A DNA stretch of 64,000 nt, taken from positions 1-64,000 of the forward strand of contig JAVBOB010000001.1 of NCBI GenBank assembly GCA_031551125.1, in the 5' to 3' direction. The notes below the pieces were generated by a model, which saw only the letters and a program-made list of their open reading frames with translations, had not been told where the DNA came from and did no database searches. Within the stretch, counting starts at the first letter, position 1, and each line of letters opens with the position of its first letter. A program made the position numbers and the translations under genes. Shown piece after piece: positions 30 to 32,659 of this stretch. Source of the DNA: Bacteroidales bacterium (GTDB taxonomy: Bacteria; Bacteroidota; Bacteroidia; Bacteroidales; UBA932).

Positions 30-135
30 TTAGGTGGCTACTGCGGTGGGGCTCCACCCCTTCCCATTCCGAACAGGGACGTTAAGCCCACCAGCGCCGA
101 TGGTACTGCGCAAGCGGGAGAGTAGGTCGCCGCCT
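30..135 (+). rRNA. rrf: 5S ribosomal RNA (3' end of an rRNA operon)
   Basis: The sequence ...GGTGGCTACTGCGGTGGGGCTCCACCCCTTCCCATTCCGAACAGGGACGTTAAGCCCACCAGCGCCGATGGTACTGCGCAAGCGGGAGAGTAGGTCGCCGCC has the canonical bacterial 5S core (CCGAAC...GTTAAGC...GATGGTACTG...GGGAGAGTAGG) and a Bacteroidetes-like length. Boundaries are +/- a few nt. Confidence 0.72.
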
Positions 136-140
136 CCTTC

Positions 141-437: not shown

Positions 438-1445
438 TTACATAAGGCTGATTTCAGCAACCGTAAGCCCGTTGTCGTTTTCCTCGTAGCGTACCATTAG
501 CGTTTTCTTTGATTTTAGCGGCGTAACAGGGTCTATGCTTCTAATGGTTGCCCTGTTCCATGTGGGGTCAGCCCGTTCTTTGCGGTAGTGCATGCTTACG
601 TCAAAGTTCAGCTCTTCTCCCGTTTCCCAGTACGGACACTTCTTCCAGCCGTTATCGCTTACGCTTTGGGGCGCTTTGCCTCCTACCTCTGGCGCTGGTA
701 TCAGGTCTTCACCGTTAATGGATATGGCGGGACGAATAAAGGCAAGGCAAACATCGGCACGGAACGATGAGTAGCGGTAAGTTCCGCTGCTATCCTCAGA
801 ATCGGTTTCGTGCTTAGTAACCTTGAACGATACAACTTTTTGCAAGCCATCTTCTGCCAAATATGCCGCCAGCGCTTCTTCTGCATGCTTCTCTGTAGGC
901 ACAGGTATGCTTATGGTAGCCTTATCGGAATGGCTTTTAATGATAAGGTTTCCGTTTACGGTGAACATGAGGTATTCTGATGGTTTTGGCTCTCCCGTCA
1001 CGGTAGCGTTAAGCGTTGCTTCCATTCCCGCCTCGCGGTACCAGTAGCCTCCCAGGGCTATCCAACCTTCGTTTGCTTTGTAGATGTAGGCCGCTCCTGT
1101 GAACGGAATTTCTGTTCCGCACTTCCAAATCTGGTACACGCGGCTACGGTCTATCTTTCCCTTAAGTGATTCTTCAGTCGGTATATCGGTAAAGCGCACC
1201 AAATCGACTATCGATTCTATTTTTGCGCTGTTCTCTGTCCACACCGCAGCATCTTTTGTAAGTCGTGCAACTCCTTCATAGCGTACCTCTACCACATCGC
1301 TGTCGGAGTGAGAAATGTTACCGGTTACGTTTATTGCTGCCAGCTCTGCAAAGCTTTTACTCTCACGTTCCACTTGGCGGAAAATAACTTGGCGGGTTGC
1401 ATCCAGTATATCTTTTGGACTTAGATTCTTAGTCATAGCATTCAC
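438..1445 (-). CDS. hypothetical protein (335 aa)
   Basis: Long ORF with no recognisable motifs. Its start overlaps the stop of the downstream gene by 4 nt (ATGA), which suggests operonic coupling with the island genes. Confidence 0.5.
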   Translation of the reverse strand: MNAMTKNLSPKDILDATRQVIFRQVERESKSFAELAAINVTGNISHSDSDVVEVRYEGVARLTKDAAVWTENSAKIESIVDLVRFTDIPTEESLKGKIDRSRVYQIWKCGTEIPFTGAAYIYKANEGWIALGGYWYREAGMEATLNATVTGEPKPSEYLMFTVNGNLIIKSHSDKATISIPVPTEKHAEEALAAYLAEDGLQKVVSFKVTKHETDSEDSSGTYRYSSFRADVCLAFIRPAISINGEDLIPAPEVGGKAPQSVSDNGWKKCPYWETGEELNFDVSMHYRKERADPTWNRATIRSIDPVTPLKSKKTLMVRYEENDNGLTVAEISLM

Positions 1446-2110
1446 TTTTTAAGTACGCTCTTACCTTCGCGCAGCAAATCTTTAAATTCGGACTCTTCAA
1501 TAATTCCTTCTTCTTCGGGGAAGCAAATGGGGTCGATAGCTTTAGCTACTGCATCGTAATCGGCCTCGTCAAGGTCAACATCAAATTCAAAATCTCTACT
1601 ATCGGCAATAATAAAGGCTTCGGGACGGCCGGCAAACTCCATACCGAAATAGGTGGTGCAAAGCATTACCTGTGCTTTTGTGTTGCCCAATACGGTCAGC
1701 ATTCCGCCGTTATCTCCGCGTGAGCCTACAATGCCATTGCCGGCAATCAGGTCGCCCAGTACAACCACTTCGGGGCAACCGGACATAAAGAGGTTGCGCA
1801 CATGCAAATTGCCTGTTACAAACAGAAACGAGCCGCTGCCCCATTCTGCCCAGTCAATATCCTCATCAACCGTCAAATTACCATCAACAATCAGGTTGAA
1901 GGGACACCAGTCCTGTTTGCTTACCACTAAGTTTTTAATGTGGCAATTGCCCTCAATGAGGCGGGTTGCCTGCTTGCCTGCAAAACGGGTGAACGGAAAG
2001 TTTACCTTGTCGGAAATGTTGTATTGGCTGTCCGCTTCGGCAGTATCAACGGCTTTTGCGTACTGCTCAATGTTTGCTTCGTCTAGTATTAAATTCTTGT
2101 CTGTTGTCAT
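1442..2110 (-). CDS. paralog 1 of a beta-solenoid-like repeat-domain family (222 aa), uncharacterised
   Basis: Shares the motif block NLIVDGNLTVD..DW...GSFLFVTGNLHVRNL..GC.EV.V.G.....NGI.G..GDNGG.LTV.GNTKA with ORFs 2137..2841, 8017..9348, 9484..10200 and 10965..14135. Acidic C-terminal tail. Confidence 0.6.
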   Translation of the reverse strand: MTTDKNLILDEANIEQYAKAVDTAEADSQYNISDKVNFPFTRFAGKQATRLIEGNCHIKNLVVSKQDWCPFNLIVDGNLTVDEDIDWAEWGSGSFLFVTGNLHVRNLFMSGCPEVVVLGDLIAGNGIVGSRGDNGGMLTVLGNTKAQVMLCTTYFGMEFAGRPEAFIIADSRDFEFDVDLDEADYDAVAKAIDPICFPEEEGIIEESEFKDLLREGKSVLKK

Positions 2111-2136
2111 AGTATTTAATTTTTAGTGTTGTTATT

Positions 2137-2841
2137 TTATTTTCTCAAAAATGGAGTACCCGCTTTAATAGCCTTGCATACTGCGCTCTCGTTTACACCA
2201 CCTTCTTTTGAAAGATATTTGAGAAGTAAAATTTCTTTGCAGTTGGGTGGTAAATCGACCTCTTCATCATCGTCATACTCGTCGTAGTTGGCTTGATAGT
2301 CGGCTTCATACTCATAGTCTCCTTCGCTGTCACAAATTACAATTGCTTCAGGTTGTGATGCAAAGTCGGTTTCGAAGTAAGTGGTTAAAATTACAGAATG
2401 TGCTTTAGTGGTACCACCTACAGTAAGGCGACCGCCATCTTCTCCTGAGTGACATAGTATGCAATTTTCTACCTCAACATTGCTATCTATGGTTACTTCG
2501 CAACAACCTTCCAGTATTATGTTTTGGGCTTTCAGATTGCCTTTTACCAGCACATAGCTATCGTTTAGTCCATTGCTCCAATCCATAATGCCATCAATAA
2601 TCAAATCGCCCAGAACAATAAGTTTGTATTGTGCAATATCTGACTTTTCACCGCCTTTCAACGCGCTTATATGCAAGTTGCCCTTGTATAAGCCTACGGG
2701 CGATATTTCCTCATCGTCGTCATAGCCAGCATGTAATTCCGGCGCACTGTATAGCTTCTCAGCATCATCTTGGCTTATTATTGTTAGTATTTCTCTGAAA
2801 TTACTTTCGTTCAGTTCCTGTAGGGTGGCTTTCTTTTTCAT
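2137..2841 (-). CDS. paralog 2 of the beta-solenoid-like domain family (234 aa)
   Basis: KLIVLGDLIIDG..DW....SYVLVKGNLKAQNIILEGCCEVTIDSNVEVENCIL..GEDGGRLTVGGTTKA; acidic D/E/Y-rich C-terminus. Confidence 0.6.
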   Translation of the reverse strand: MKKKATLQELNESNFREILTIISQDDAEKLYSAPELHAGYDDDEEISPVGLYKGNLHISALKGGEKSDIAQYKLIVLGDLIIDGIMDWSNGLNDSYVLVKGNLKAQNIILEGCCEVTIDSNVEVENCILCHSGEDGGRLTVGGTTKAHSVILTTYFETDFASQPEAIVICDSEGDYEYEADYQANYDEYDDDEEVDLPPNCKEILLLKYLSKEGGVNESAVCKAIKAGTPFLRK

Positions 2842-2980
2842 GGTGTTATTTTATTTATTTTGATAAATCTTTTTGTACATTTATTCCCTCACTAAGGGCA
2901 TTGTAAAGCGCGTCATTGTCAATTTTCCATTCGTTATCTTCGATTTCGACAATCTCTTTCGGCCCTATTATAACATAGCT

Positions 2981-3748
2981 TTAATCAAAGTTACCACGGC
3001 TTATTTCGTCGTCAGCGGTTTTGGCAATTTCTTCCAGCCGGGCAAACTCTTCTGCACATTTCTTCATCTCCTCCGATGTATTTGGCGCCTCTAGTAAAAT
3101 ACGGCTGATTTCGTTGGCTGCATGGCGCATTTTTATAAAGCCTTCAGCAATTTGTGATGTAGTCCAAGATCGCTTGCGGAATGAACAGCGGAACTTCCGA
3201 AACCGGAGGTTGTGAATATGCTGTTTGCATTCGGGCGTGTAGTCTTTTCCTTTGGGAGAAAGATTATGAAGCTGCATGGCTATGCGGTTGTAGTCTTCCT
3301 CCAAGTCGGAAATACAATAGGTAAGGTCGCTGAGTGGCGGATATTTCGCTATTTGTTCTGCCAAAACTTTTTCGTCCATTTGGGCATAGGGCGCACCCAT
3401 GATATCGAAAATCCGTTTGCGCTCGGCATACTGTAGCGGTTGGTACGAGCGGTAACGGTAGTCTATCGAAGATAGAAACCGGTGGAAAAGGTAATCCTCA
3501 ATGGTGGTGTATAACGCCCAATAAATGGCCTCTTCCGGATTATCGGTCGAGCGTAGCTCCAATATCTCCGGGCCCCCTCTGCTGTCCGGGTCACTCCTCA
3601 TCAGGCGGTATTTCCCATCTTTGATGATTAGGGTATCAAAATACATAATGGGCTCGCCTATATGCAACGCAGGTGCTCCGGTGGCAAATTCCGGAACTTT
3701 TTGTAGCAGCGCGGCGGCTATATCAATCAACTCTCTTATCGTTAGCAT
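2981..3748 (-). CDS. hypothetical protein (255 aa)
   Basis: ORF in the same-strand island; no recognised domain. Confidence 0.45.
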   Translation of the reverse strand: MLTIRELIDIAAALLQKVPEFATGAPALHIGEPIMYFDTLIIKDGKYRLMRSDPDSRGGPEILELRSTDNPEEAIYWALYTTIEDYLFHRFLSSIDYRYRSYQPLQYAERKRIFDIMGAPYAQMDEKVLAEQIAKYPPLSDLTYCISDLEEDYNRIAMQLHNLSPKGKDYTPECKQHIHNLRFRKFRCSFRKRSWTTSQIAEGFIKMRHAANEISRILLEAPNTSEEMKKCAEEFARLEEIAKTADDEISRGNFD

Positions 3749-3767
3749 GGTACATGGGGTAGGTGAA

Positions 3768-4994
3768 TTAATTTGCTTGAAGAGATTGCATAAATTTGTT
3801 CTTCAATGTTTCGCGAACTTCGGCTACCCGTTCTTTCATTTCTTCCGGAAAATCGTCGGGATTTACGGGGGTAAATGTTGGCGATGCATTAGACTCTTCA
3901 ACACGCTTTAGCTCCACCAACGCTTCATTTATTAAGCCCATGTTGGCAAGCCTAACAGCAATGTAGTACAAGCCCGAAGCATTATCGTCGTCAATCACGC
4001 CATCCATGTAGGCTGCTTTTATTTGCGGGTAGTACTCTTTATGCTCTTTAATGGCAGAAATGAAAACGCCTGCATTATTGCATAGCTGGTCGCAAAAGCG
4101 CTTTCTACGCGCATTGGGAAACAAACGAATGAGGGTTTCAAAAACGGGAAAAGCATCCAGCTCTTTATTCAAGCAGCTGACAATAATATTGCTGGTGTAT
4201 AGTACAAGGTAGTCTGCACCTGTGGTTGATAGCTTATTGCCACTCCTATACAGCTCTTCCAGCTTAGCAATGAAGGCAGGAACGTTGGTAGCTTTTTCAG
4301 CTGCTGAAAACAGCTCGTAAATATCGTCGTCAGTAATTTCTTTGCCTGACGGTTGGGCTACAGGCGCTTTTGCTTCTTGCTTTTTGGGCAGCTGAGCAGC
4401 TACGTTTGGAATAACATTGTCCAAATCCAGATATTCTGCAACGCGCTTTAGGAATAACGAACCGATATTGCAGGCTACGTACTCTTCAATGTCTCCACTT
4501 TCGTGAGATGCTAAACAGAGCATGGGTTCACCCTGTGTGTTTTTTGCTTGTGGGTGATATACCCACCAGTCGGAGTAATCGGTAAGCGGACATTGAATAT
4601 CGCCGGGGTTGGTGAATAGGCTTAGAAAATCGCTATCGCCATCTTCAAACATTTCGGGTTCTAGGCTGCCAAGGTCACCCAGCTCCAGCGCCCAACCACC
4701 ATCATCGGGAAAGGTGATGAACTCGTGCTTTGCCATTATTTTTTTGTATGATGCAGGCCAGCCGGAGAAATCACCGCTTGTTGCTTCACTACAGGCAAGC
4801 TCTTTATCGTCGCCAAAGTGTATGGCTAGCAATTCAGCTTCATCTGACAGCTCGACCGATTTTGCTTGTTTCATAATGGCCTCTAAAACAGGTAAAAATC
4901 CATCCGAATCGGCGAGGTAGGAGAAGTGTTCAACCAGCTCCTTGCTTAAGTCTTTTGCCGCTGAGAGCTGCTTATAGAGTTCCGTATTTGTCAT
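3768..4994 (-). CDS. hypothetical protein (408 aa), possibly with a SUKH/SMI1-KNR4-like region
   Basis: Segment WPASYKKIMAKHEFITFPDDGGW...DWWVYHP...GEPMLCLASHESGD weakly resembles SMI1/KNR4 (SUKH) immunity domains. The assignment is tentative. Confidence 0.45.
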   Translation of the reverse strand: MTNTELYKQLSAAKDLSKELVEHFSYLADSDGFLPVLEAIMKQAKSVELSDEAELLAIHFGDDKELACSEATSGDFSGWPASYKKIMAKHEFITFPDDGGWALELGDLGSLEPEMFEDGDSDFLSLFTNPGDIQCPLTDYSDWWVYHPQAKNTQGEPMLCLASHESGDIEEYVACNIGSLFLKRVAEYLDLDNVIPNVAAQLPKKQEAKAPVAQPSGKEITDDDIYELFSAAEKATNVPAFIAKLEELYRSGNKLSTTGADYLVLYTSNIIVSCLNKELDAFPVFETLIRLFPNARRKRFCDQLCNNAGVFISAIKEHKEYYPQIKAAYMDGVIDDDNASGLYYIAVRLANMGLINEALVELKRVEESNASPTFTPVNPDDFPEEMKERVAEVRETLKNKFMQSLQAN

Positions 4995-5063
4995 AATGGG
5001 TTAAGTTCTTATGTATGTGGCAAATTCTATCGTTGAAAGTTTCACTTGCAATGATGTGGCAGC

Positions 5064-6629
5064 TTACTTTCTCTTACTTTTTACTTGTTCTATTTTTTCT
5101 ATAACATTGTTGGGTAGCAGCGGAGTTAGGCGAGGAAAGAGGTTATCGAACTGAAAATCGTAGTAATCCGTATCGCCCTCTTTTTCGTAGTATTCCACAA
5201 AGCGTTTGTAGGCGCGTTGCTTAAGCTCATCGCTTGGGTTTCGTTCAAGCAGCGATACGAATAGGTTGTGTAGCCCGTCGGCAGCCAACAGCTGCGTATC
5301 GCACTTTTCGAGTAGGTAAATCAGCGCATCGGTGGTAAGCTTGGGAAGGTAGCTATCAATCAGCTGGTCTTGCACGGTGTCTGATTCGGAGCGGTGTCCG
5401 GCATCGTAGTATTCGCCTGCGCGTAAGAAGGCATCAACCAGCTTCAGCTGTGCTTCGGTATGCTTGCGATTAATCAGCTCTCCTGCCGCATCAAGAGCTA
5501 GCTGGTAGTTTGATTCCATTGTAGGGAAGGAGAATTCGAACAGGTGAACCAGCGTATCGAAGGTGAACATTTTTTTGAACAGGTAGAACATATTGTCCAG
5601 CAACTCCACGTCAGCGGGTTCTCCTTCACTGTCCGATTCAATTTCAAAAAAAGTAGAAATAACATTCTTGATTTTTTTTGAAGCCTCGTACAAGTCGTTA
5701 ACCAGCGCTTCTGCCTGCTCAATGGTTTGGGGCTCGCTCAGCTTATTGGCCATTGCTTCTTGTACCTCCGCTTCTTCGAGCGTACTACCGGATATGATGG
5801 CTTTAAACTTTGCTGAACTACGGTAAGTGTTGAAATCGGAATCGCGAAAATCGTAGTCGTGTTTGCCATTTTTTAAAGCAACAATAATGTACTTGTACAT
5901 CAGCTCTTCATTATCACCCTTAGTGGCAAAGTAGCAGGACATGTTGAAAGAAAGAGGCGCCCACTTAATATCTTCAATAGCCATGCCGTAGCTAACGGCT
6001 TGTTGGGTTACTTCAAAACGCCCACACGCCATAGATGCGGCTATAGCCTGTGTTAGCACACGTTCTTGTGTGCGCTTGTCGAGTACAAAGCCGGGGTACA
6101 CGGTAATTATATCGCTACACTCGTTGTAGCGTTTGTTGTTAACCATTTCGAGGTAGTAGTCGGCAAATTTGAAGTCAGGCGCGGGCTCAAACGTGGCAGC
6201 CTTAAGCTCTTCAATAGCCTCTTTCAGCAAACGTTCCGCTTTTTCTTTATCCTCCAACCAGTATGAACCGCGCATACCTATGGTGAGCTTATCAGCCAGC
6301 GTTCTTGCCTCGGTCAGCGCTTCTTTCTCTACGTAGGGCTTAAACCACTTATCGGTAACATTGCCCTGTACAGCGGTTGTAGCAAGCCAGTCAGAAAAAT
6401 CTCTTCCGCCGCTGTCAAACTCCTTAATGCGTTCGGCAGAAAATGTTTTCCAATCTTCCGAACGGATAATGTAGGCTGTCCACTCTACTAAATCATCGCT
6501 ACATGATATGTTGAGATGAGCCTTGAGCATCTTTTTTGTTTGCGCTTTCAGCTCGCTAAAGTTATCGTGATACTTGCGAAGCAGGTTTTTCGCTTCGGTA
6601 AACAGAATAGAGTCAATAGTTGCGGTCAT
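5064..6629 (-). CDS. hypothetical protein (521 aa)
   Basis: Long ORF; no recognised domain. Confidence 0.45.
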   Translation of the reverse strand: MTATIDSILFTEAKNLLRKYHDNFSELKAQTKKMLKAHLNISCSDDLVEWTAYIIRSEDWKTFSAERIKEFDSGGRDFSDWLATTAVQGNVTDKWFKPYVEKEALTEARTLADKLTIGMRGSYWLEDKEKAERLLKEAIEELKAATFEPAPDFKFADYYLEMVNNKRYNECSDIITVYPGFVLDKRTQERVLTQAIAASMACGRFEVTQQAVSYGMAIEDIKWAPLSFNMSCYFATKGDNEELMYKYIIVALKNGKHDYDFRDSDFNTYRSSAKFKAIISGSTLEEAEVQEAMANKLSEPQTIEQAEALVNDLYEASKKIKNVISTFFEIESDSEGEPADVELLDNMFYLFKKMFTFDTLVHLFEFSFPTMESNYQLALDAAGELINRKHTEAQLKLVDAFLRAGEYYDAGHRSESDTVQDQLIDSYLPKLTTDALIYLLEKCDTQLLAADGLHNLFVSLLERNPSDELKQRAYKRFVEYYEKEGDTDYYDFQFDNLFPRLTPLLPNNVIEKIEQVKSKRK

Positions 6630-6686
6630 ATTTGGTTGTTTATGGGTTTTGCTAATGTGTGTTTGCTATATTTTGATCTGTTTTTG

Positions 6687-6842
6687 GGCCCAATTAGGAG
6701 CCACATCTTTGTAGCATGTTTGTTTTATTAAGCATTCGCTCCGTTAGGAGCGACATCTTACGCTCGTTTAAGATGCTGCTCCTAACGGAGCAGAGTTTAC
6801 TATATCATTTTCTTTCTACAAAGATGTTGCTCCTATGGAGCA
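6687..6842. repeat. S-module: nested palindromic repeat built from GCTCC-N-TTAGGAGC / CATCTTTGTAG units
   Basis: Outer arms GGCCCAATTAGGAGCCACATCTTTGTAG ... CTACAAAGATGTTGCTCCTATGGAGC. Inner palindrome CTCCGTTAGGAGCGACATCTT ... AAGATGCTGCTCCTAACGGAG. The same module recurs at 10688..10834, 16273..16446 and 60994..61146. Confidence 0.8.
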
Positions 6843-6849
6843 AATTTGC

Positions 6850-6953
6850 CGTCATTGCGAGCGAAGCGACCCGAAGGGCAGCGTAGCTAACCAATCTGCT
6901 TCAATTTAGGAGATTGCTTCGTGATTCAAAAAGCGAATCACTCACGATGATGG
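6850..6953. repeat. H-module: GTCATTGCGAG...CTCGCAATGAC inverted-repeat hairpin element
   Basis: CGTCATTGCGAGCGAAGCGA...GATTGCTTCGTGATTCAAAAAGCGAATCACTCACGATGATGG; this copy has a degenerate right arm. Homologous copies at 9379..9478 (inverted), 10842..10957, 16173..16257, 56765..56854 and 59326..59410. Confidence 0.8.
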
Positions 6954-7009
6954 TTGTTTTGTAAATATTCACTAGTTAATCAGTAGGTGTACGTTTATAG
7001 CCAAGCAGC

Positions 7010-7999
7010 CTACAGCTCTGGTAGCGGAATGCTGTGCCATTCGTTATTTTCATAGCGGAAAAGTCCGGCTTTGCCTCCCATAAAGTAGAACTTGCCGTTT
7101 ACGTTATGAATACGGCGGTTTTGTGCTATACCTATAGGAGAGCCGATGTCAACAGCTGTATCTCCTTCCAGCAGTACGGCTTTGGCTCCGCTTACTACCG
7201 GTGCGGAAATTTCCAGATATATTTTATCGCCAATGGGTTGTACGTGCCAAATTTCTTCTGTGCGAAGATTTTTGATTTCAATGTTGGTAGTGTTTCCTTG
7301 TGCATCAATTTTTGTTAGCGATTCATCATCGAACAGGTACACGCTATTTTCATGTTCCATATATGCTATATGGTCGTAGCCCGCATCATGAAACTCTTCG
7401 TGCCCAAAGAATTTTTTCCAGCTGTTGCCATCTCCCTCAAAAATACCTTCGTCAGCCAGCAGCAGAATCTTTCCGTCACGAAATGCGATGTCGTTGGTAG
7501 AGCGTATATTGATGTTATTTTTGTATAGAAAATGTTCAGGGTCATGGCTATGCTCTTCAACAGCTTTAAGCAGGTTAGGGCGAACATCTTGCCAGCAACC
7601 GTTATCATACATGTATAGCTGGTGACCAAGTCCGGACAGGTAAGCCTTGTTTTGGTAGGTGAAAGCGGCAGATAGGTAGCCGAGTTTTCCGGGGCCTGTT
7701 CCGGCCGTTTCAATGGCTATTTTCTTTGGCTTTGCTCCGGGCGTTATGATTTGAGTATTTCCCCGTTGAGCGGCAAGTGCAACCGTAGGCTTCCCTTGTG
7801 CATCAAGGAATGCAGTAGATAGCCACATGCCGGTAGCGGCCGGATATACGTCTACAATTTTATCGTTGTTGAAATGAAGCAGGTGATACTTTCCGGCGCA
7901 GGTTGCCAGTACAAAAATATCATCGTTTACATAGCATAACGATTGTAGTATGGTTGCTTTCTTTTTTTCTTTGGGTGCTTCGTCTGATATTTTTTTCAT
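7010..7999 (-). CDS. hypothetical protein (329 aa)
   Basis: ORF in the island; the recurring G/aromatic pattern is beta-rich but I recognise no family. Confidence 0.45.
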   Translation of the reverse strand: MKKISDEAPKEKKKATILQSLCYVNDDIFVLATCAGKYHLLHFNNDKIVDVYPAATGMWLSTAFLDAQGKPTVALAAQRGNTQIITPGAKPKKIAIETAGTGPGKLGYLSAAFTYQNKAYLSGLGHQLYMYDNGCWQDVRPNLLKAVEEHSHDPEHFLYKNNINIRSTNDIAFRDGKILLLADEGIFEGDGNSWKKFFGHEEFHDAGYDHIAYMEHENSVYLFDDESLTKIDAQGNTTNIEIKNLRTEEIWHVQPIGDKIYLEISAPVVSGAKAVLLEGDTAVDIGSPIGIAQNRRIHNVNGKFYFMGGKAGLFRYENNEWHSIPLPEL

Positions 8000-8016
8000 G
8001 AGAGGTTTGTTTTTAT

Positions 8017-9348
8017 TTATAGGTTTTGCAAGTAATCAACTACGCTACTACGCTTCTTTTCTTTAGCAAGATCAAGCGCGTTTTGCCCTTTATCATTTTT
8101 TATACAGGGATCTGCTCCGGCAGCAATCAGCATTTGCACAACTTCTAGGTGTCCTTTTTCTGCCGCCCACTGTATGGCGGTTCCGCCATCGTGGGTTTGC
8201 TCGTTCAACGGACACCCTTTAGCTATAAGCACCTCTACCACGCGGATAAGCCCTGCTTCTGAAGTCATTTGAACAGCCGATTGTTTGTACTTATCTTTTG
8301 CCATTATATCGGCTCCGGCTTCAATCAGCATTAACGATTCCTCTCCTCTGCCCGAGTAGGCGGCCATTATCAACGGAGTAAACTCGTTGTTGTCGGGCGT
8401 GTTGAGGTTAGCGCCTGCTTTAATCAGGGCTTTCAGCGCTTTCTTTTTTCCTAGCCACGCGGCCATAAACAAAGGGGTGCATAACAGCTTATCTCGAACT
8501 TCCATGTCGGCTCCCTTCTCTACCAAAACCGTTATCACATCGGCTTCGTCTCCTTCGGCGGCAAAGTGTAATACGCTTTTCTTTTTTTCGGTGCATACGT
8601 TAACATCGGCTCCGGCAAGGGCAAGTTCGCGCACCAGCTTAAAATTGCCGTTGTCTGCGGCCTTCAGAATATCGCCTTTTACTTGTCCGGTTCTAAAAAT
8701 ATTCCCATTAGCTTTCAACACTTCCGACAATTTATCATAGCTAAGGTTACCACTGTCCTTCAAAACATCGGATGACAGAAGAATGGAGAGTTCTTCAGGT
8801 TTATGGTTAACAGGGAAGTTTACATCGTAGTCATAAGCTACCACCAACGCTTTGGGATGCTGCTTGAAGTTCATGTGAAAGTACAGCTGGTTAATGATAA
8901 TTTTTGCGCTGACTTCACCATCAATTACCAGCTCGCCACCATCATCGCCGTTTGTACCGCAAATGCAATTCTCGATTTCTACATTACCACGCACGTATAT
9001 GTTGGGAGAGCCATGCATGATAAGGTTTTTGGCTTTCAGGTTTCCGGTAACAAAGAGGAACGAACCCAAATCTTCTTCGCGCCAATCAATAAGCCCGTCA
9101 ACCGTAAGATCGCCATCAACTACAAGGTTTGGAGTACAGAACTCGTCATTAAGCCCAATGCTGATACCCGATAGCTCTAGGCTACCCTTGTGAATGAAGG
9201 TTTTCTGTTCAAGGTCTTCATAGCAATCAATAAAGGGGTATCCAACCGATTTGGATATGTTGTATAGCTCTTCCGCTTTTTCAGGTTCTATAAGTTGGGC
9301 AAAGCTTCCACAGCTTTTTCCGGTTAGTATTTTTTCTGCCTTCTTCAT
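8017..9348 (-). CDS. paralog 3: beta-solenoid-like domain fused to C-terminal ankyrin repeats (443 aa)
   Basis: N-terminus carries NLVVDGDLTVDGLIDW...GSFLFVTGNLKAKNLIMHG..IYVRGNVEIENCICGTNGDDGGELVIDG. The C-terminal half has clear ANK repeats (LHFAAEGDEADVITVLVEKGADMEV..., TPLIMAAYSGRGEESLMLIEAGADIMAKD..., TAIQWAAEKGHLEVVQMLIAAGADP). Confidence 0.65.
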   Translation of the reverse strand: MKKAEKILTGKSCGSFAQLIEPEKAEELYNISKSVGYPFIDCYEDLEQKTFIHKGSLELSGISIGLNDEFCTPNLVVDGDLTVDGLIDWREEDLGSFLFVTGNLKAKNLIMHGSPNIYVRGNVEIENCICGTNGDDGGELVIDGEVSAKIIINQLYFHMNFKQHPKALVVAYDYDVNFPVNHKPEELSILLSSDVLKDSGNLSYDKLSEVLKANGNIFRTGQVKGDILKAADNGNFKLVRELALAGADVNVCTEKKKSVLHFAAEGDEADVITVLVEKGADMEVRDKLLCTPLFMAAWLGKKKALKALIKAGANLNTPDNNEFTPLIMAAYSGRGEESLMLIEAGADIMAKDKYKQSAVQMTSEAGLIRVVEVLIAKGCPLNEQTHDGGTAIQWAAEKGHLEVVQMLIAAGADPCIKNDKGQNALDLAKEKKRSSVVDYLQNL

Positions 9349-9378
9349 CTCTTAATATTTCTTTACTGTGAGTCTATA

Positions 9379-9478
9379 CGTCATTGCGAGCAATTCGCTT
9401 TCTGAATCGTGAAGCAACCTCTGGCTATCAAAGATTGGTTAGCTTCGCTGCCCTTCGGGTTGCTTCGGATGCAATGAT
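9379..9478. repeat. H-module copy, inverted orientation, partly degenerate
   Basis: CGTCATTGCGAGCAATTCGCTTTCTGAATCGTGAAGCAA...GATTGGTTAGCTTCGCTGCCCTTCGGGTTGCTTCGGATGCAATGATG aligns to the reverse complement of 6850..6953. Confidence 0.7.
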
Positions 9479-9483
9479 GTGGG

Positions 9484-10200
9484 CTAACTTCTGAAAATAG
9501 ATTTTCCTTCCCGTAGTGGTTCATACATGGCTTTACTGTCAACATAGTCGCAGTAGTCGTCCATTTCGTCCAGCTCCTCGGCCTCCTCTTCGCTCACAGG
9601 GTCAACCAGTATATCATGATTTATGAGATGGTAGAAAGCCCTATCGCTCATAAACTCAATATCGTTTTTCACCTTGTTGCTCTTGCCATTGTCAACACGA
9701 TATTCGTTGCCGTAAGCAAGCTTAAAGCTGATAGTCCCTTCTATTTTAAAGAAATGCTCTTCGGGATAAAAGAACCCGGCTGTAGCATTGCCTTTAATAA
9801 TGGCAAAACAATCGTTGTAGTGCCCAATAATTGCACCCTCCACGTCAACATTTCCCTTCACCTCAAGCGTGCCCCCTGTTATAAGATTTTTCGCTTTCAG
9901 ATTTCCTCCCACATAAATGTGGGTTGCCGGCTCATCATCGTAATGTTCCAGCAGGCCGTTAACCGTTAAGCTTCCTGTTACTATTAGGTTGCAAATTTCA
10001 TCACCTAATTCCAAATTGCCGTCGATAACCAAATCGCCAATGCAAACAACGGTATCGCATTCCATATCGTTGCTTTCAGCATAGTTCAGATGCCACTCCA
10101 TAAAATTTTCTTTAAGCTCCGAAGCGCTTAGTGTTTTATGGATTTCGTCCATGCTGATTTCGCCTTTTATCAGGCTGCGGGTATTTTTTAGTGTTGTCAT
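9484..10200 (-). CDS. paralog 4 of the beta-solenoid-like domain family (238 aa)
   Basis: IGDLVIDGNLELGD..NLIVTGSLTVNG...IYVGGNLKAKNLITGGTLEVKGNVDVEGAIIG; acidic C-terminus. Confidence 0.55.
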   Translation of the reverse strand: MTTLKNTRSLIKGEISMDEIHKTLSASELKENFMEWHLNYAESNDMECDTVVCIGDLVIDGNLELGDEICNLIVTGSLTVNGLLEHYDDEPATHIYVGGNLKAKNLITGGTLEVKGNVDVEGAIIGHYNDCFAIIKGNATAGFFYPEEHFFKIEGTISFKLAYGNEYRVDNGKSNKVKNDIEFMSDRAFYHLINHDILVDPVSEEEAEELDEMDDYCDYVDSKAMYEPLREGKSIFRS

Positions 10201-10247
10201 TTGTATGTTTTTTCGTGTAATTCTTGGTTCTTTTTAGGCAACGACGT

Positions 10248-10628
10248 TTAGTATTCGGGTACTTGAGCGGTAAACTCTACACCATCAACGGTGCATGATT
10301 TAGCGTAGAGCGACAGGCTACAGCTTGTTTGTTCTGACCCCGGATAGTAGCTGCCGTTTTCGTAAATTTGATTTGCCAGCTTTACTTCGCGAAATACCAC
10401 GCTACGTTGCTTACTTCCGCCGATTATAATGGTAACATCCGCCGATTGGTATTGCCCGGCGGCAAGACGCAGTATGGGTTGTGGTATTTGTTCGTACCAC
10501 GAAAAGTCTAAGGATATTTGACCATTCTCAGCATTTACGGGAAGCCTGTAGCTGTAAGAGTAAGTGTTGTATTTGTACACATCGGTTTTGCCTGTACTTG
10601 TTCGTAGGGTTAGTTCCAGCTCTATCAT
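10248..10628 (-). CDS. hypothetical small protein (126 aa)
   Basis: Compact ORF between two repeat-family genes; no motif recognised. Confidence 0.4.
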   Translation of the reverse strand: MIELELTLRTSTGKTDVYKYNTYSYSYRLPVNAENGQISLDFSWYEQIPQPILRLAAGQYQSADVTIIIGGSKQRSVVFREVKLANQIYENGSYYPGSEQTSCSLSLYAKSCTVDGVEFTAQVPEY

Positions 10629-10687
10629 AGTGTTATAAGTTATTATGGTTATTTTGTTATTCGTTGTTATTTGTTGAGGCTCCGTTA

Positions 10688-10834
10688 GTAGCCGAATCTT
10701 TGTAGTAGGTTTGCTCTGTCTGCTGTTCGTTCCGTTAGGAGCGACATCTTATCTTCTGTTTGAGATGCTGCTCCTAACGGAGCAGATTTGCTATACGCTT
10801 TTTCTTTCTACAAAGATGTTGCTCCGTAGGAGCA
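10688..10834. repeat. S-module copy
   Basis: GGCTCCGTTAGTAGCCGAATCTTTGTAG ... CCGTTAGGAGCGACATCTTATCTTCTGTTTGAGATGCTGCTCCTAACGGAGC ... CTACAAAGATGTTGCTCCGTAGGAGCA. Confidence 0.8.
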
Positions 10835-10841
10835 AATTTAC

Positions 10842-10957
10842 GGTCATTGCGAGCGAAGCGAAGCAATCCCTGCGCTATATATCGCGCTAGTTAATCCATG
10901 CATTTGACACACAGAGATTGCTTCGTGATTCAAAAAGCGAATCACTCGCAATGACGG
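10842..10957. repeat. H-module copy abutting the stop codon of CDS 10965..14135
   Basis: GGTCATTGCGAGCGAAGCGAAGCAATC...GATTGCTTCGTGATTCAAAAAGCGAATCACTCGCAATGACGG; a hairpin-forming, likely terminator-like element. Confidence 0.8.
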
Positions 10958-10964
10958 GCGGGCA

Positions 10965-13900
10965 TTATTTACCGCCTTTTGCCTGCCAGGCCAAGAAGTT
11001 TTTGTCTTTCTTTAGGTCTGCAAAATCGCCAAAGTCGGAATATTTTGACAGTACGAAGTCAACAATACGGTAAGCCTCATCGGTGCGACCCAGCTTAAGC
11101 AGAATGCGCACTTTCGTATCGTAAATGTAGTAGTGGCTGCTACCTTCAATACAATCTATACCGCGTTCAACGGCTTTTAGCGCTTCTTCCAGCTGTCCTG
11201 TTTCCATTAAGAACCATCCAAGCGAGTTTCCGGCTTCGCGGTTTACCTCTTTATGGAACTGTCCCTCATCGGTGAAGACCCAGATTAAGCCAACAGGCGG
11301 AACCAGCTCTAAGGCCTTGCGGTTGTATGCAATCAGCTGTTGCAGGGCAGCCTCGCGCTCTTTGCCGTCTATGTTGGCTATTAATCGGCCTAAGCAGTAC
11401 ACAAGCCCGTAGTAAGTGTATTGTAGGTTGTAGGTGGTGCAGGGCTTGCCCGATTCGAACAGCGTAACGGCTTCTTCGAACGTTTTCATGGCTTCTTGCT
11501 TTTTGCCGTTAACCATTTGTTCTGCGCCTTTCTTTACAATTTTATCTACCGCACCTTCCTTTTCCCTTTCCCTATCAATACTCTTGCACCTTCTAAGGTC
11601 GAACTTAACGCCTGTGGGGAAGGTTTCGAAAATGCGCTTAAGCGTAGCCTCATTCAGCTGGGCGTACTCTAGCTTTACCTCTTTGAGGTTTTTCAATGCA
11701 AAGAACGATTCGGGCAGCGTTTCCAATTCCGTAAAGCTGATGGTAAGCTTCTGTAGCTTGGGCATATTGGTAAAAGCGTTTTCGGGCAACCGCTTTAGGC
11801 ATTTTCGCTCTACAATGTGCTTACCCGCTTTTGAGCTGTACTCCTTTTCTTCGCCCCAGCGGCTTAGGTCTAGCTCTTCCAGCGAGGGGATATTCCATAT
11901 TTGCGGCAGTTCCAACAGCTCCAGCTTAGCATAAGGTCTTGAACCGCCGTCGAGGGTTAGCTTGCGCAGGTGTGTTAGCTTGGAAAGGTCGCAAACCTTT
12001 TCAACCAAACCAAGGCAGTCAATCTCAAGTTCCTCCAGCATTTGCAGCTTAAGAAAGCGGTCGCCAATTTCGGCCAGCGGTAAGCTTTCCAGCTTAAGCG
12101 TCTTCAGGTTTTTTAAATCGAATATTACGGTGGCCTTACCCGTTATTTTACAGATAGACAGCTTATCCAAGCTGTCCAGCTTAGCCATTGATTGCGGCAG
12201 GTCGCAGCATGTTTCCTGAAGATAAAGTTCCTTTAGCCCGCTCAGGTCACCGATTTCGTTGGGTAGCGATTTCAGGCTGTACAGGTATTTAAGGTTGAGT
12301 GATCGCAGCTCCTTCAGCTTACCAATCTCTGCAGGAAGAGTTTCCAGGCGGCACAGGTACTTAAGATTGAGCGAGCGTAGCTTCTGCAGCTTACCAATCT
12401 CTGCAGGCAAGGTTTCCAGTATGTTATGTTCCAAATCCAAATCTTCCAGCTCGCTCAGCTCTCCAATGCGAGGTGAAAGCACCTCGAGGTCGTTATTGCT
12501 AAGGTCTAGCACCTTTAGCTTAGTAAAGCGGAACAGCTGCTCGGGAAGTTTCTTTATGTGCCTTCCGGACAGGTCTAATCTTGTAATCTCATCAGCGTTT
12601 TTTAGCAGCTCGTTCAGCTCTTTTACCAGCGCTTCACTGGCAGGCATGGCATTTTTGCGCAAGATAGGCGCACCTTCCTGCATAGCTTTTCGAATAGCCC
12701 GGTAATCCATGCTTTCGCCATCGTCATCTATGAATTTTGGAAGCAGCGCTTTTAGGGCCTCATCACTATCAAAGTCAATGGCACAGTTCGTCTGGTAATC
12801 GTTGATAATCATTGCTTCCGGCTGCTTTGCAAACCACATACTGAAGTATAGTATGTTCACAATAAGCTTAGCTCTTGTATTTCCGCCTATGTTCAGCTCT
12901 CCTCCGTCATCGCCAAACATTCCCATAATGCCATTTTCAACCTCCACGTTGCCTCTTATCGATACGTTGGCACAGCCGCCCAGCAAAAGGTTTTTTGCCT
13001 TAACGTTTCCGGTAACCAGCAAAAAGCTGCCATCTAGGTCGGTAGCCCACTCAAGGTCGCCATCTACTATTAAATCACCATCAACAATAAGGTTGAATTC
13101 GCCACCATTTACCGAGCCAACGTGCAGGTTTCCCTTGTGCAGGCAGGTTTCTTGCTCATCTGCAAAATCAAGAAAGGGGAAGTTAATATCCTCGGATATT
13201 TTGTAGGTTTCCTCTGCCTCTTCCGCATTAACAAGCGCAATAATTTCTTTGTAGTTTTTATCAGTCAGGCTTTGAATGTTTGTAGTTTGAGAGCTTTTGT
13301 TGCTGCTCTTTGCTTCGGCAGCTGCTTTGGGTTTGGCTACTGTAGGCTCAGCGGTAGCAAGCCCGTTTTCTACATGGTAGTCCTTAATCAGTTCGGCCAG
13401 CTCGGTAACAACCGAGTAGAACGTCATATCGCCCTCGTGCCAGCCATCGTTCATGCCCAAATCCTGATAGTCGAAGTGGCGCACCTTCATTTCGCCTGTG
13501 GTATCGGCACTGCTAATAACGTAGAGGTAGAAACGTTCGCCTTCGGGGCTGGCGCAAAACAGCAAGCCGTCATTCATAATTTCTCCTTCCTCATCGTAAT
13601 CTTCAAACTCCTCGCGGTATTCGCTGGTTTGCTCTACCATTTCTTCCGGAGAAAGCAGGCTCGTATTATTTCCGCTGCCCTGTCCTAACAGCTCACCATC
13701 GAAGTAGAACATTCCGTAGCGGGTAACGAAATCGGTGTATGAAGCAGGTAGCTTCACCTTTAGCTTTTTTTCTGCCTTGGCTATTTCTTTTGCTGTAACA
13801 AGGTCTGAGAATTCAACCGATTCTTCAATACCGTTTGCCTCTAACCATTCATTCAGCTCATCTAACACCTGCTTTGCCTGTTCGGCCTGAGCTGTTGATG

Positions 13901-14135
13901 CAGAGGCTGTGGTTACAGCACCTTCCGTGGCAGCCTCAACGTAGCCTTTTTTTGTCTTTTCAGCAATCAGCTTATCGGCTTCTTTTTTGCAGGCAGCTTC
14001 ACTATCAAATGATTTGCTGCCGGTTTGCCCCGCTGCACCTACCTTACCATAGGTAGTTGTGAGTTCAGAGCCATTTACCTCAATAGTCCAAAACTTGTTC
14101 GACTTATCGTCCGTGTAGATGAATGTGCACTTCAT
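10965..14135 (-). CDS. paralog 5: giant multidomain protein WGR - SUKH (SMI1/KNR4-like) - beta-solenoid-like domain - leucine-rich repeats - TPR-like C-terminus (1056 aa)
   Basis: WGR: DDKSNKFWTIEVNGSELTTTYGKVGAAGQTGSKSF...KTKKGYVEA. SUKH: EIAKAEKKLKVKLPASYTDFVTRYGMFYFDG...GLLFCASPEGERFYLYV. Shared block: NLIVDGDLIVDGDLEW...GSFLLVTGNVKAKNLLLGGCANVSIRGNVEVENGIMGMFGDDGGELNIGGNTRAK. LRR: LDLSGRHIKKLPEQLFRFTKLKVLDLSNNDLEVL...LDLEHNILETLPAEIGKLQKLRSLNL. The tail is TPR-like and helical. Confidence 0.7.
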   Translation of the reverse strand: MKCTFIYTDDKSNKFWTIEVNGSELTTTYGKVGAAGQTGSKSFDSEAACKKEADKLIAEKTKKGYVEAATEGAVTTASASTAQAEQAKQVLDELNEWLEANGIEESVEFSDLVTAKEIAKAEKKLKVKLPASYTDFVTRYGMFYFDGELLGQGSGNNTSLLSPEEMVEQTSEYREEFEDYDEEGEIMNDGLLFCASPEGERFYLYVISSADTTGEMKVRHFDYQDLGMNDGWHEGDMTFYSVVTELAELIKDYHVENGLATAEPTVAKPKAAAEAKSSNKSSQTTNIQSLTDKNYKEIIALVNAEEAEETYKISEDINFPFLDFADEQETCLHKGNLHVGSVNGGEFNLIVDGDLIVDGDLEWATDLDGSFLLVTGNVKAKNLLLGGCANVSIRGNVEVENGIMGMFGDDGGELNIGGNTRAKLIVNILYFSMWFAKQPEAMIINDYQTNCAIDFDSDEALKALLPKFIDDDGESMDYRAIRKAMQEGAPILRKNAMPASEALVKELNELLKNADEITRLDLSGRHIKKLPEQLFRFTKLKVLDLSNNDLEVLSPRIGELSELEDLDLEHNILETLPAEIGKLQKLRSLNLKYLCRLETLPAEIGKLKELRSLNLKYLYSLKSLPNEIGDLSGLKELYLQETCCDLPQSMAKLDSLDKLSICKITGKATVIFDLKNLKTLKLESLPLAEIGDRFLKLQMLEELEIDCLGLVEKVCDLSKLTHLRKLTLDGGSRPYAKLELLELPQIWNIPSLEELDLSRWGEEKEYSSKAGKHIVERKCLKRLPENAFTNMPKLQKLTISFTELETLPESFFALKNLKEVKLEYAQLNEATLKRIFETFPTGVKFDLRRCKSIDREREKEGAVDKIVKKGAEQMVNGKKQEAMKTFEEAVTLFESGKPCTTYNLQYTYYGLVYCLGRLIANIDGKEREAALQQLIAYNRKALELVPPVGLIWVFTDEGQFHKEVNREAGNSLGWFLMETGQLEEALKAVERGIDCIEGSSHYYIYDTKVRILLKLGRTDEAYRIVDFVLSKYSDFGDFADLKKDKNFLAWQAKGGK

Positions 14136-14336
14136 GGGTTGTATAGTTTTGTTATTTAGCCGCTTAGCGGTGAATTTTGGTTTGTTGTTGCTTTGTTGGG
14201 CAAATGTATGGTTTAGGGAATGTATAACAGGTAAAAACTACGATTACATTTTGTATAGGTTTGCGTTAAAATGATGTATACAATTTGTATACATTGCTAC
14301 TTTTCGTTAATTTTGCAAACCCTCAAGCCATTAGTA

Positions 14337-16166: not shown

Positions 16167-16172
16167 TAGCGC

Positions 16173-16257
16173 CGTCATTGCGAGGCGTTTTTTGCCGAAG
16201 CAATCTGCTTACTTTGAGCAGATTGCTTCGCTTTGCTCGCAATGACGATGTTGGGGG
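16173..16257. repeat. H-module copy directly after the LuxR-like gene stop
   Basis: CGTCATTGCGAGGCGTTTTTTGCCGAAGCAATCTGCTTACTTTGAGCAGATTGCTTCGCTTTGCTCGCAATGACG. Confidence 0.8.
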
Positions 16258-16272
16258 TAGGTTTGGTCTTAT

Positions 16273-32636: not shown

Positions 32637-32659
32637 TCACCCTAAATTTCTCAACTTAT

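Follow-up and report, generated by a model that had tools for sequence, protein, structure and literature searches.

The closest described counterparts of the locus analyzed here are the polyimmunity loci, known from Bacteroidetes and Actinobacteria, which are usually free of toxin genes, co-oriented and variable between strains, and whose named partners are SUKH, Imm-Ank, Imm-LRR and Imm-HEAT (Zhang et al. 2012, PMC3482391). Acquired interbacterial defence (AID) clusters, as described by Ross et al., are mobile elements' immunity genes grouped in arrays. The toxin-locus-linked YwqG/TYPP family shows sporadic N-terminal WGR and ankyrin (Ank) fusions and has several paralogues clustered in one operon, a pattern that its authors read as multimeric protein-protein interaction (Burroughs & Aravind 2014, PMC4275035). 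In the Leptospira LIC_11051 family an N-terminal WGR domain is followed by LRRs, and the protein is acidic (pI 5.18) and without a signal peptide (PMC11674859).

We analyzed a 64-kb stretch of DNA (the window) from a Tannerella-like gut bacterium, in which an island at 438-14135 invites comparison with these systems. Like polyimmunity loci, the island consists of tandem co-oriented genes with mostly short gaps, has no detectable toxin gene and varies between strains; like polyimmunity proteins, its products are cytoplasmic, with SUKH fused to unrelated interaction domains and partners of the Ank, LRR and HEAT type (PMC3482391). It differs in that the module shared by its genes is not a described Imm family (nor does any other island ORF match one), in that the module family has WGR and LRR partners in a fixed order and a cross-phylum architecture under purifying selection, and in having neither an adjacent recombinase nor a known cognate toxin. 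The clustering of paralogues and the WGR and Ank fusions recall YwqG/TYPP, whose fold and sequence are unrelated to those of the module (zero YwqG/DUF1963 matches in the island), and the acidity, the missing signal peptide and the WGR-LRR order of one island protein recall LIC_11051. Tentatively, we take the module proteins to be immunity-type binders of the polyimmunity kind, the best-supported of the readings weighed below.

Layout and content of the island

The island comprises 11 consecutive genes on the minus strand, five carrying the module (p1 to p5), which occurs in two subtypes (p1-type and p4-type), and six interleaved ORFs (o numbers). The intergenic gaps are -4, 26, 139, 19, 69, 380, 17, 135, 47 and 336 bp; six of the ten are at most 69 bp, and three of the four large ones contain dispersed repeat elements. 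The features are as follows:

438..1445, minus: o0, 335-aa orphan ORF, last gene of the island
1442..2110, minus: p1, 222 aa, standalone p1-type module (HMM envelope 1445-2110)
2137..2841, minus: p2, 234 aa, standalone p1-type module (HMM envelope 2140-2841)
2981-3748, minus: o3, interleaved orphan ORF
3768-4994, minus: o4, interleaved orphan ORF
5064-6629, minus: o5, interleaved orphan ORF
6650-6960: nested-palindromic repeat, intergenic
7010-7999, minus: o7, interleaved orphan ORF
8020..8676, minus: p3 ankyrin repeats, ~aa 225-443, C-terminal (Pfam Ank_2 E 6e-34, Ank E 1e-30)
8689..9348, minus: p3 module, p1-type, aa 1-220, N-terminal (HMM envelope and BLASTP)
9379-9477: nested-palindromic repeat, intergenic
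9484..10200, minus: p4, 238 aa, standalone p4-type module (HMM envelope 9487-10200)
10248..10628, minus: o10, 126 aa, between p5 and p4; tentative Hcp/TssD-like tail-tube fold
10650-10960: nested-palindromic repeat, intergenic
10968..12638, minus: p5 LRR (~aa 500-840) and TPR-like helical C-terminus (~aa 860-1056) (Pfam LRR_14 E 7e-23, LRR_8, weak TPR)
12654..13292, minus: p5 internal module, p1-type, aa 282-494 (HMM envelope, iE 1e-89)
13473..13856, minus: p5 SUKH (SMI1_KNR4), ~aa 94-221 (Pfam SMI1_KNR4 E 1.9e-11)
13929..14135, minus: p5 WGR, aa 1-69 (Pfam WGR E 2.9e-20)
~16160-16400, 56766, 59327-59409, 60995-61098: further copies of the repeat, outside the island

All island proteins are acidic, and none has a signal peptide or transmembrane segment (the highest 19-residue Kyte-Doolittle window is at most 1.25) or shows either mark of T9SS cargo looked for, a hydrophobic N-terminal segment or a match to PF18962 (Por_Secre_tail). 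Searches of Pfam, NCBIfam and PADLOC found an enzymatic or toxin domain in 0 of the 11 proteins and left six ORFs with no assignable domain; o5 has a weak TPR_END_plus/ARM match. The preliminary description had seen no toxin or secretion gene in the window, which holds for toxin domains in the island ORFs and was inexact for secretion, with an HlyD plus C39-ABC bacteriocin exporter at 31.4-34.8 kb and the tentative Hcp fold of o10. Its placement of the island directly after an rRNA operon likewise has to be narrowed, only a 5S rRNA gene (30-138, plus strand) being visible.

The six interleaved ORFs show no kinship to the module or to one another by all-against-all BLASTP. The start of o0 overlaps the stop of p1 by 4 nt; o0 has no family match in Pfam or NCBIfam searches and no homologue at three related loci (L001-L003; loci are cited by L numbers). 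Recent horizontal acquisition of the island was considered and rejected (GC 45.4% versus 43.3%, with a tetranucleotide distance inside the window's range).

The shared module and its fold

The five paralogous minus-strand ORFs first reported are all present where they had been placed, with pairwise E values from 1e-5 to 1e-45, and the module is found in exactly five genes within the window's first 20 kb. In all-against-all BLASTP p1, p2, p3 and p5 match one another at E 1e-28 to 1e-45 (34-39% identity), and p4 is the divergent member (E 4e-5 to 7e-14, the best being against p3 at 7e-14); the subtype HMMs score p4 at 423 bits (p4-type) versus 54 bits (p1-type). The unit is longer than the ~170 aa originally proposed, HMM envelopes giving about 213-238 aa.

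The suggestion of a beta-solenoid-like fold agrees with an AlphaFold2 model (pLDDT 91.6), from which we confidently predict a right-handed beta-helix of 4-5 rungs between a helical N-terminal and a helical C-terminal segment (in p1, whose pI is 4.3, the beta-helix is placed at ~aa 47-169). The family-wide median pI of the module is 4.32, and the C-terminal tail of p2 is very acidic. The domain fusions noted earlier were recovered by Pfam: Ank in p3, and in p5 WGR, SMI1_KNR4 (SUKH), LRR and weak TPR. The SUKH domain of this last protein passes the Pfam gathering scores (PF09346, 45.1 bits versus a cut-off of 25.4), as does the same region for SUKH_5 and SUKH_6 (PF14567, 36.6 bits; PF14568, 36.4 bits; cut-off 27), and its WGR domain is 49% identical to that of a Labilithrix DNA ligase.

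The module itself belongs to no named family. The copies in the window are unmatched in Pfam, NCBIfam, PADLOC and PDB sequences (the last searched with a single sequence and with a profile), and Pfam gave no significant match among 36 diverse members. The homologues retrieved all bear the name "hypothetical" or "LRR protein", and each of the 23 matches from an indexed search with a diverse alignment is hypothetical. Among the candidates rejected, the FapA beta-solenoid matched p4 only (E 0.011; 15.7 bits versus a cut-off of 31). Membership of p5 in the LIC_11051 family (NCBIfam NF047464) fails at 132 bits versus a 1000-bit cut-off, only WGR and LRR yielding hits; the partial matches of p5 and of WGR-module-LRR homologues (E 1e-18 to 1e-41, 65-143 bits) cover profile positions 1-96 (WGR) and ~490-685 (LRR) and not the ~400-aa middle, and the module alone gives 0 matches.

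The right-handed beta-helix fold does agree with that of bactofilins, and a polymer-forming cytoskeletal element, with fused repeats anchoring cargo to a filament, would account for it. We consider this most improbable: no member reaches any Pfam threshold (PF04519, best E 0.14, in 2 of 36 members), better fold matches are to adhesin and tapirin-type helices, conserved helical segments sit at either end of the modelled beta-helix, where they may act as caps and might block end-to-end polymerization, and a patchy, multi-copy and mobile distribution is unlike that of a cytoskeletal gene. Identity to those better matches is only 8-14%, which points to a generic fold. Across generic beta-helix proteins (the tapirin C-terminal domain, 6n2b and 4wa0; autotransporter passengers; bactofilin, 2n3d and 6ria) identity to the module is 4-16%, and neither sequence nor profile searches match significantly; these are secreted adhesins or filament formers, whereas the module is short, cytoplasmic, acidic and helix-flanked.

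The module family and its gene neighborhoods

The family comprises at least 870 cluster representatives (50% identity) from Bacteroidota, Actinomycetota and Myxococcota, including Streptomyces and myxobacteria; its distribution is patchy, multi-copy and mobile. As a rule the module precedes LRR, TPR or Ank repeats, and a WGR domain often stands before it. Among 73 long homologues the partners include LRR (27), WGR (15) and SUKH (4), and no classical polyimmunity domain (SuFu or Imm33, for instance) ranks among the 25 most frequent partner families. The order of domains is fixed (WGR, module, LRR-TPR), not promiscuous. Residues 301-1051 of p5 are collinear with actinomycete proteins of ~780 aa (37-39% identity, E ~1e-140 to 1e-179); this module-LRR-TPR protein (an architecture of ~750 aa) is kept across phyla at 38-39% identity, and its orthologues within Streptomyces are 70-91% identical. 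Hundreds of Streptomyces, myxobacterial and Bacteroidota proteins carry no annotation beyond "LRR protein" or "hypothetical" because the module is unnamed in the libraries tested, and defining it would improve annotation. Phage origin was rejected, no relative being found in viral contigs; a metagenome scan for further neighborhoods gave three loci, one of them already in our set.

A p1-type gene has a p4-type gene directly upstream of it in the window (p4 adjoins p3 on its upstream side in the direction of transcription), in two compost Bacteroidota contigs (L027 and L029, where the p4 orthologues are 48-50% identical and again directly precede the p1 orthologue) and in Streptomyces, with at least eight actinomycete loci showing this adjacency. 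The Streptomyces order is SUKH, Ank-p4 module, p1 module-LRR-TPR and HEAT, genes whose start and stop codons overlap, compared with WGR-SUKH-p1 module-LRR-TPR, p4 module and p1 module-Ank in the window. The Streptomyces cassette is mobile: on linear plasmids it is flanked by IS elements, and a plasmid copy shares 99% identity with the copy on a chromosomal contig. No significant similarity links the island orphans to its HEAT protein or to the N-terminus of its SUKH protein.

The recurrent gene pair makes a conserved scaffold or sensor complex of several subunits a serious rival to immunity-type binding, if a somewhat unlikely one. On that account p4-type and p1-type modules would form hetero-oligomers, whether on separate proteins or in tandem on one, and assemble LRR-TPR, Ank, HEAT and SUKH surfaces; WGR would be the sensor of nucleic-acid ends, the complex would work in nucleic-acid damage, RNA repair or regulation, and the island would represent its expansion in one lineage. 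Two phyla distribute one domain set over their polypeptides in different ways, tandem-module fusions are common, and the fixed domain order, the WGR partners and the conservation within Streptomyces also fit. Set against this are many solitary standalone members without the partner subtype (L003, L030, L039-L042) and the finding of no p4-type gene in the examined stretches of L001 and L002. SUKH adjacency in Streptomyces amounts to one independent observation, L005, L008 and L035 being a single cassette (94-99% identity). An output or enzymatic component is absent, and five paralogues with six unrelated orphans look more like accretion than a stoichiometric complex.

Neighboring genes bear on the scaffold complex too. 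A giant MJ1316/2H/PAP protein is encoded directly upstream of the module gene at L020, L021 and L038, and other RNA-repair-type neighbors are RlaP (twice, L039), RtcB (L041, L026) and a WGR-DNA ligase (L026); together they occur in ~4 of ~20 lineages, a raw count without background control that limits what this proximity can say for the complex. Regulators of the AAA_16-TPR-GerE type lie upstream at five loci (L006, L007, L011, L032, L034), again as a regulatory complex would have it.

The search of homologue neighborhoods for toxin genes that had been proposed as a check returned one Rhs and one eCIS locus in ~20 lineages, most contexts consisting of ordinary genes. In L027 a 2714-aa Rhs protein is encoded upstream on the same strand, in L029 an eCIS_core lies ~10 kb from the module copy, and in L041 PemK and AbiEii are near the module gene. 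These loci bring up a possible link to a contractile injection machine (T6SS or eCIS): the module proteins might be its cargo or its adaptors, loaded through an Hcp-like tube protein for delivery into eukaryotic or bacterial targets, whose proteins they would bind and subvert. The candidate tube protein is o10, whose model (pLDDT 62.6) matches an Hcp/tail-tube fold, an assignment that we make tentatively. Searches found no Pfam match to o10 at E <=5, no NCBIfam match at E <=10, no Hcp among its matches to PDB sequences and no sequence match to TssD. Ank and LRR repeats without a Sec signal would suit such cargo, and Bacteroidota, Actinomycetota and Myxococcota all harbor eCIS or T6SS. The proposal nevertheless strikes us as quite improbable: p5, at 1056 aa, by far exceeds what the lumen of an Hcp ring can take, the 64-kb window holds no T6SS or eCIS gene beyond o10, homologues of o10 are missing from all other module loci examined, toxin and enzymatic domains are lacking, and most homologue loci are without injection-system genes.

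Turnover, conservation and possible function

Island content and architecture differ in the closest relatives. L001 has a p1 orthologue that is 90% identical, a p2 counterpart that is fused to Ank repeats and only 53-55% identical, a WGR-module gene in place of o0, o4-like and o3-like pieces and an altered gene order; in L002 the content differs again, with an o7 orthologue (71% identical) between module genes. Within this turnover p1 is under strong purifying selection (dN/dS 0.057), a value that, together with the cross-phylum and Streptomyces identities, describes a pattern of conservation with no obvious arms race and counts in favor of the scaffold complex.

The island may be pictured as a resident, fast-rearranging accessory locus of cytoplasmic, acidic, non-enzymatic interaction-scaffold proteins. 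As immunity-type binders, these would neutralize incoming protein toxins by stoichiometric binding without catalysis, the acidic beta-helix (pI ~4.3) serving as a toxin-binding surface and possibly as a nucleic-acid mimic against nuclease-type toxins. Alternatively, the beta-helix could be a shared head that pairs p4-type with p1-type modules, the paired modules displaying binding surfaces that vary (LRR, TPR, Ank or SUKH). Immunity-type binding draws on the SUKH, Ank and LRR partners, the WGR and Ank fusions paralleled in the YwqG family, the co-oriented locus with no detectable toxin gene and its turnover of content, the mobility of the cassette and occasional conflict-type neighbors (Rhs, eCIS_core, PemK, AbiEii and the tentative Hcp fold), and on the recurrent two-module arrangements, as adjacent genes and as tandem fusions. 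It is weakened by the dominance of LRR and WGR, the fixed domain order and conservation, the mostly ordinary gene neighborhoods and the lack of an adjoining recombinase, and by the fact that no cognate toxin was identified.

The polyimmunity comparison made in the preliminary description accordingly stands in part: the island agrees with the descriptive features of Zhang et al. 2012, but SUKH is the only recognised major immunity family here (zero matches to other Pfam Imm families among island proteins), Ank and LRR are ambiguous in this respect, the dominant family partners are LRR and WGR, and p1 and the Streptomyces orthologues are conserved rather than fast-evolving. The other proposal made there, eukaryote-like secreted effectors, loses ground with the lack of a signal peptide or T9SS C-terminal domain and with full-length close relatives in free-living Streptomyces. 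AID clusters are reportedly associated with a recombinase. The recombinase criterion also draws on Zhang et al. 2012 (PMC3482391). The island was rejected as an AID cluster, having no flanking recombinase, integrase or transposase and a composition that matches the surrounding genome; the Streptomyces cassette differs from it in being IS-flanked on plasmids.

Should the module proteins prove to be immunity-type binders, the interbacterial-defence domains of gut Bacteroidales would gain a new beta-helix class. A bolder proposal, in our judgement rather unlikely, would make the module an unrecognised two-subtype beta-helix pairing domain of a conserved, horizontally mobile, non-enzymatic WGR/SUKH/Ank/LRR/TPR/HEAT complex in three phyla, a new intracellular sensor or decoy system. 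Such a complex, which may be connected with the damage that toxins do to nucleic acids or RNA, stands opposed to a simple collection of independent immunity genes. The p4-type/p1-type pair and the cross-phylum mobile cassette offer testable handles on the role of bacterial WGR-LRR proteins.

The nested-palindromic repeats described between the paralogs are real (in their nesting, I12 encloses I7), with 17 and 9 motif matches in the window versus 0.2-0.3 expected and zero Rfam family matches. Their specific tie to the island fails: the same motifs occur at 16.2-16.4, 56.8, 59.3-59.4 and 61.0-61.1 kb, indicating that the repeats are dispersed and not a feature of the island.

A module family without a curated model

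The five minus-strand genes that the preliminary description had proposed as paralogues (p1 to p5) were all found as open reading frames at the positions listed here, together with the neighboring rRNA gene.

Module genes of the island (438-14135) and the adjacent rRNA gene
30-138, 5S rRNA gene
1442-2110, minus strand, p1, module gene
2137-2841, minus strand, p2, module gene
8017-9348, minus strand, p3, module gene with ankyrin repeats (Pfam)
9484-10200, minus strand, p4, divergent module gene
10965-14135, minus strand, p5, module gene with WGR, SMI1_KNR4 (SUKH), LRR and weak TPR matches (Pfam)

All-against-all BLASTP joined p1, p2, p3 and p5 (mutual matches at E values of 1e-28 to 1e-45, with 34-39% identity) and placed p4 as a remoter member (E 4e-5 to 7e-14); in the same comparison the interleaved reading frames o0, o3, o4, o5, o7 and o10 gave no similarity to the module or to one another. 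Pfam agreed with the domain fusions claimed for p3 and p5, the TPR match being weak. The common block, which had been put at about 170 aa, is indeed shared by the five genes, but its HMM envelopes extend over about 213-238 aa, a unit that includes a conserved amino-terminal helical segment (EAEE.F..S....PY..F) and a carboxyl-terminal helix (L..G...LR) in addition to the short beta-helix. The module is acidic (pI about 4.3 in the window copies; family-wide median 4.32), as are all eleven island proteins, and neither signal peptides nor transmembrane segments were found in any of the eleven. All island products are predicted to be non-enzymatic cytoplasmic interaction scaffolds. The suggestion of eukaryote-like secreted effectors is weakened, because secretion signals are absent and full-length relatives occur in free-living Streptomyces.

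Pfam, NCBIfam and PADLOC hold no model that covers the module, and a comparison of PDB sequences with the family profile returned nothing (best E 0.59), in keeping with the earlier failure to assign it to a named family. Thirty-six diverse standalone members gave only sporadic sub-threshold matches to other beta-solenoid families; that the proteins form bactofilin-like polymers is very improbable. Cluster representatives recovered by an exhaustive profile search number 870 at E <= 1e-3, and stricter cut-offs of 1e-10 and 1e-30 leave 212 and 45, respectively. Genome matches lie in a Tannerella metagenome-assembled genome (whose p1 orthologue is 90% identical), Parabacteroides sp. PF5-9, Taishania, many Streptomyces, other Actinomycetota and Myxococcota; no relatives were found on viral contigs. 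Source annotations call every homologue either 'hypothetical' or 'leucine-rich repeat domain-containing protein' and list no Pfam domain across the module. Among 121 full-length occurrences the module is amino-terminal with a carboxyl-terminal extension in 51, standalone in 43, internal in 18 and carboxyl-terminal in 9. Partner domains in the 73 long homologues are LRR (27), WGR (15), TPR (about 6), SUKH (4), Ank (2) and DUF4116 (2), and the 25 families seen most often as partners include neither a toxin family nor a classical Imm one. Both the fold and the overall genomic logic belong to known kinds, and no feature is categorically unprecedented; as far as the tested libraries and the searchable literature show, the module family (as the preliminary description had supposed), the gene pair formed by its two subtypes and the cross-phylum cassette are undescribed. 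The module constitutes a solid, real and uncurated family that offers clear experimental handles; its function is proposed here, not established.

Gene pairs of two module subtypes and the Streptomyces cassette

The modules fall into two subtypes, p4-type (p4 and its relatives, 55 domain matches) and p1-type (251), and in three settings a p1-type gene directly follows a p4-type gene: the window (p4 followed by p3, with 135 bp between them), two Bacteroidota-like contigs (a 231-aa followed by a 223-aa protein across a gap of 14 bp, with 48-50% identity to p4 and 55-58% to p1) and actinomycetes. At least eight actinomycete loci encode an Ank-p4-module protein or a 273-aa p4-like protein and then a module-TPR or module-LRR-TPR protein, the stop and start codons of the pair overlapping in some. 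Tandem modules within a single polypeptide are common (for example, WGR-module-module-LRR). An actinomycete protein of approximately 780 aa is collinear with p5 residues 301-1051 through module, LRR and TPR-like tail (37-39% identity, E 1e-140 to 1e-179), and the Streptomyces orthologues of the module-LRR-TPR protein share 70-91% identity with one another.

Upstream of the Streptomyces pair stands an SMI1/KNR4 protein or an AAA_16-TPR-GerE regulator, and downstream, in some cases, a HEAT-repeat protein. This cassette is found on linear plasmids, between IS elements; a plasmid copy and a chromosomal contig copy are 99% identical, indicating that the cassette is mobile, and the adjacency to SUKH in Streptomyces therefore counts as one independent observation.

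Genomic setting and possible function

The composition of the island is no different from that of the remainder of the window, and its flanks are ordinary (a TPR/HTH-like protein, EamA, S9 peptidase, Band 7, CorC and LptC), with no recombinase among the flanking genes. The closest relative, locus L001, keeps the order o3, p2, p1; its p2 counterpart (8769-9959, 396 aa) carries carboxyl-terminal ankyrin repeats, and a 385-aa WGR-module protein (10832-11989) follows p1 in place of o0, which shows that module genes gain or lose whole domains within a short evolutionary span. Adjoining genes diverge unevenly from this relative (dN 0.05 for p1 and 0.35 for p2), and the dN/dS of p1 is 0.057.

Two further proteins, one beside the island and one within it, were read by eye. 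The 631-aa product of 14271-16166 (plus strand), which adjoins the island on the opposite strand, appears to have amino-terminal TPR-like repeats, one transmembrane segment, a coiled coil and a carboxyl-terminal LuxR/GerE-like HTH (LTDLDLKYCVYIYMNISSKQMASML...), with nothing significant in Pfam; its likeness to the AAA_16-TPR-GerE regulators upstream of the Streptomyces cassette may be a true parallel or fortuitous. The amino-terminal half of o4 (3768-4994), at about residues 70-190, looks SUKH/SMI1-like (WPASYKKIM...FPDDGGW...LCLASHESGDIEEY...SLFLKRV); this half has no Pfam match even at E <= 5, and its BLAST similarity to the Streptomyces SUKH protein is insignificant (E 0.3-0.5).

Elsewhere the contexts of homologues are heterogeneous, most copies being solitary amid ordinary genes. 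One copy (L041) lies near PemK, AbiEii and RtcB; in L027, a Bacteroidota-like contig, a 2714-aa Rhs protein is encoded on the same strand some 7 kb upstream of the copy, with a run of small ORFs in between, and in L029, another such contig, an eCIS core gene is found at a distance of about 10 kb. That the module proteins serve as cargo or adaptors of injection machines seems unlikely. In Taishania (L003, 10670-11308), a 212-aa pentapeptide-repeat protein, of another beta-helix class, is encoded 12 bp downstream of a p1 homologue; some pentapeptide-repeat proteins are DNA-mimic immunity proteins. In about four lineages, module genes have genes for RNA repair or RNA-end processing in their vicinity, a raw count that carries no background rate.

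RNA-repair and RNA-end-processing genes near module genes
L020 6222-9758, L021 6175-9804 and L038 518-4054, 1178-aa MJ1316 + EEP + 2H phosphoesterase + poly(A)-polymerase protein, directly upstream of the module gene
L039 8817-10913, two RlaP genes
L041 9383-10807, RtcB
L026 1-4910, RtcB/RtcR and WGR-DNA ligase

Polyimmunity loci and proteins have been described as co-oriented, free of an internal toxin and strain-variable, combining SUKH with unrelated binders and with Ank, LRR or HEAT partners (Zhang et al. 2012, PMC3482391), and the island largely fits this description. The polyimmunity reading put forward in the preliminary description stands to that extent, but WGR and LRR outnumber classical Imm partners and the neighborhoods are mostly ordinary. 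Because of the descriptive fit, a role as an immunity-type binder is the single best-supported reading, and we hold it tentatively; the acidic beta-helix would then either bind the toxin through its own surface or serve as a pairing head to which variable solenoid surfaces are attached. The alternative of a conserved scaffold or sensor complex, which we regard as possible if somewhat doubtful, fits several features almost as well: the domain order is fixed, WGR and LRR dominate among the partners, collinearity extends across phyla, purifying selection is strong and the p4-type/p1-type pair is conserved.

Intergenic repeats and other loci in the window

The nested-palindromic repeats reported between the paralogues are real, but the tie to the island is not: their motifs recur at about 16.2-16.4, 56.8, 59.3-59.4 and 61.0-61.1 kb, and the repeats are therefore dispersed intergenic elements outside the logic of the island. 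The family is built of GCTCCGTTAGGAGC hairpins and inverted GTCATTGCGAGC(GAAGCGA) pairs, with partial nesting; it has no match in Rfam and looks REP- or MITE-like.

Composite intergenic repeats
6650-6960
9379-9477
10650-10960
16160-16400
56766-56777
59327-59409
60995-61098

A class-II bacteriocin-type locus occupies 31434-37340, with Pfam support limited to the exporter pair (HlyD and the C39-peptidase ABC exporter).

Genes of the bacteriocin-type locus
31434-32636, HlyD (Pfam)
32597-34825, C39-peptidase ABC exporter (Pfam)
34851-35168, small HTH protein
35283-35474, 63-aa peptide with double-glycine leader ...DANGG|GWFW... (leader by eye)
35504-35695, 63-aa peptide with double-glycine leader ...LLENGG|GPIG... 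(leader by eye)
36122-36619 and 36954-37340, multi-transmembrane ORFs, CPBP/Abi-type immunity-like (CPBP assignment by eye)

Two tRNA genes (44851-44924, minus strand, and 48208-48281, plus strand), unrelated to the module island, bracket a sodium:solute symporter gene and a beta-lactamase-family gene.
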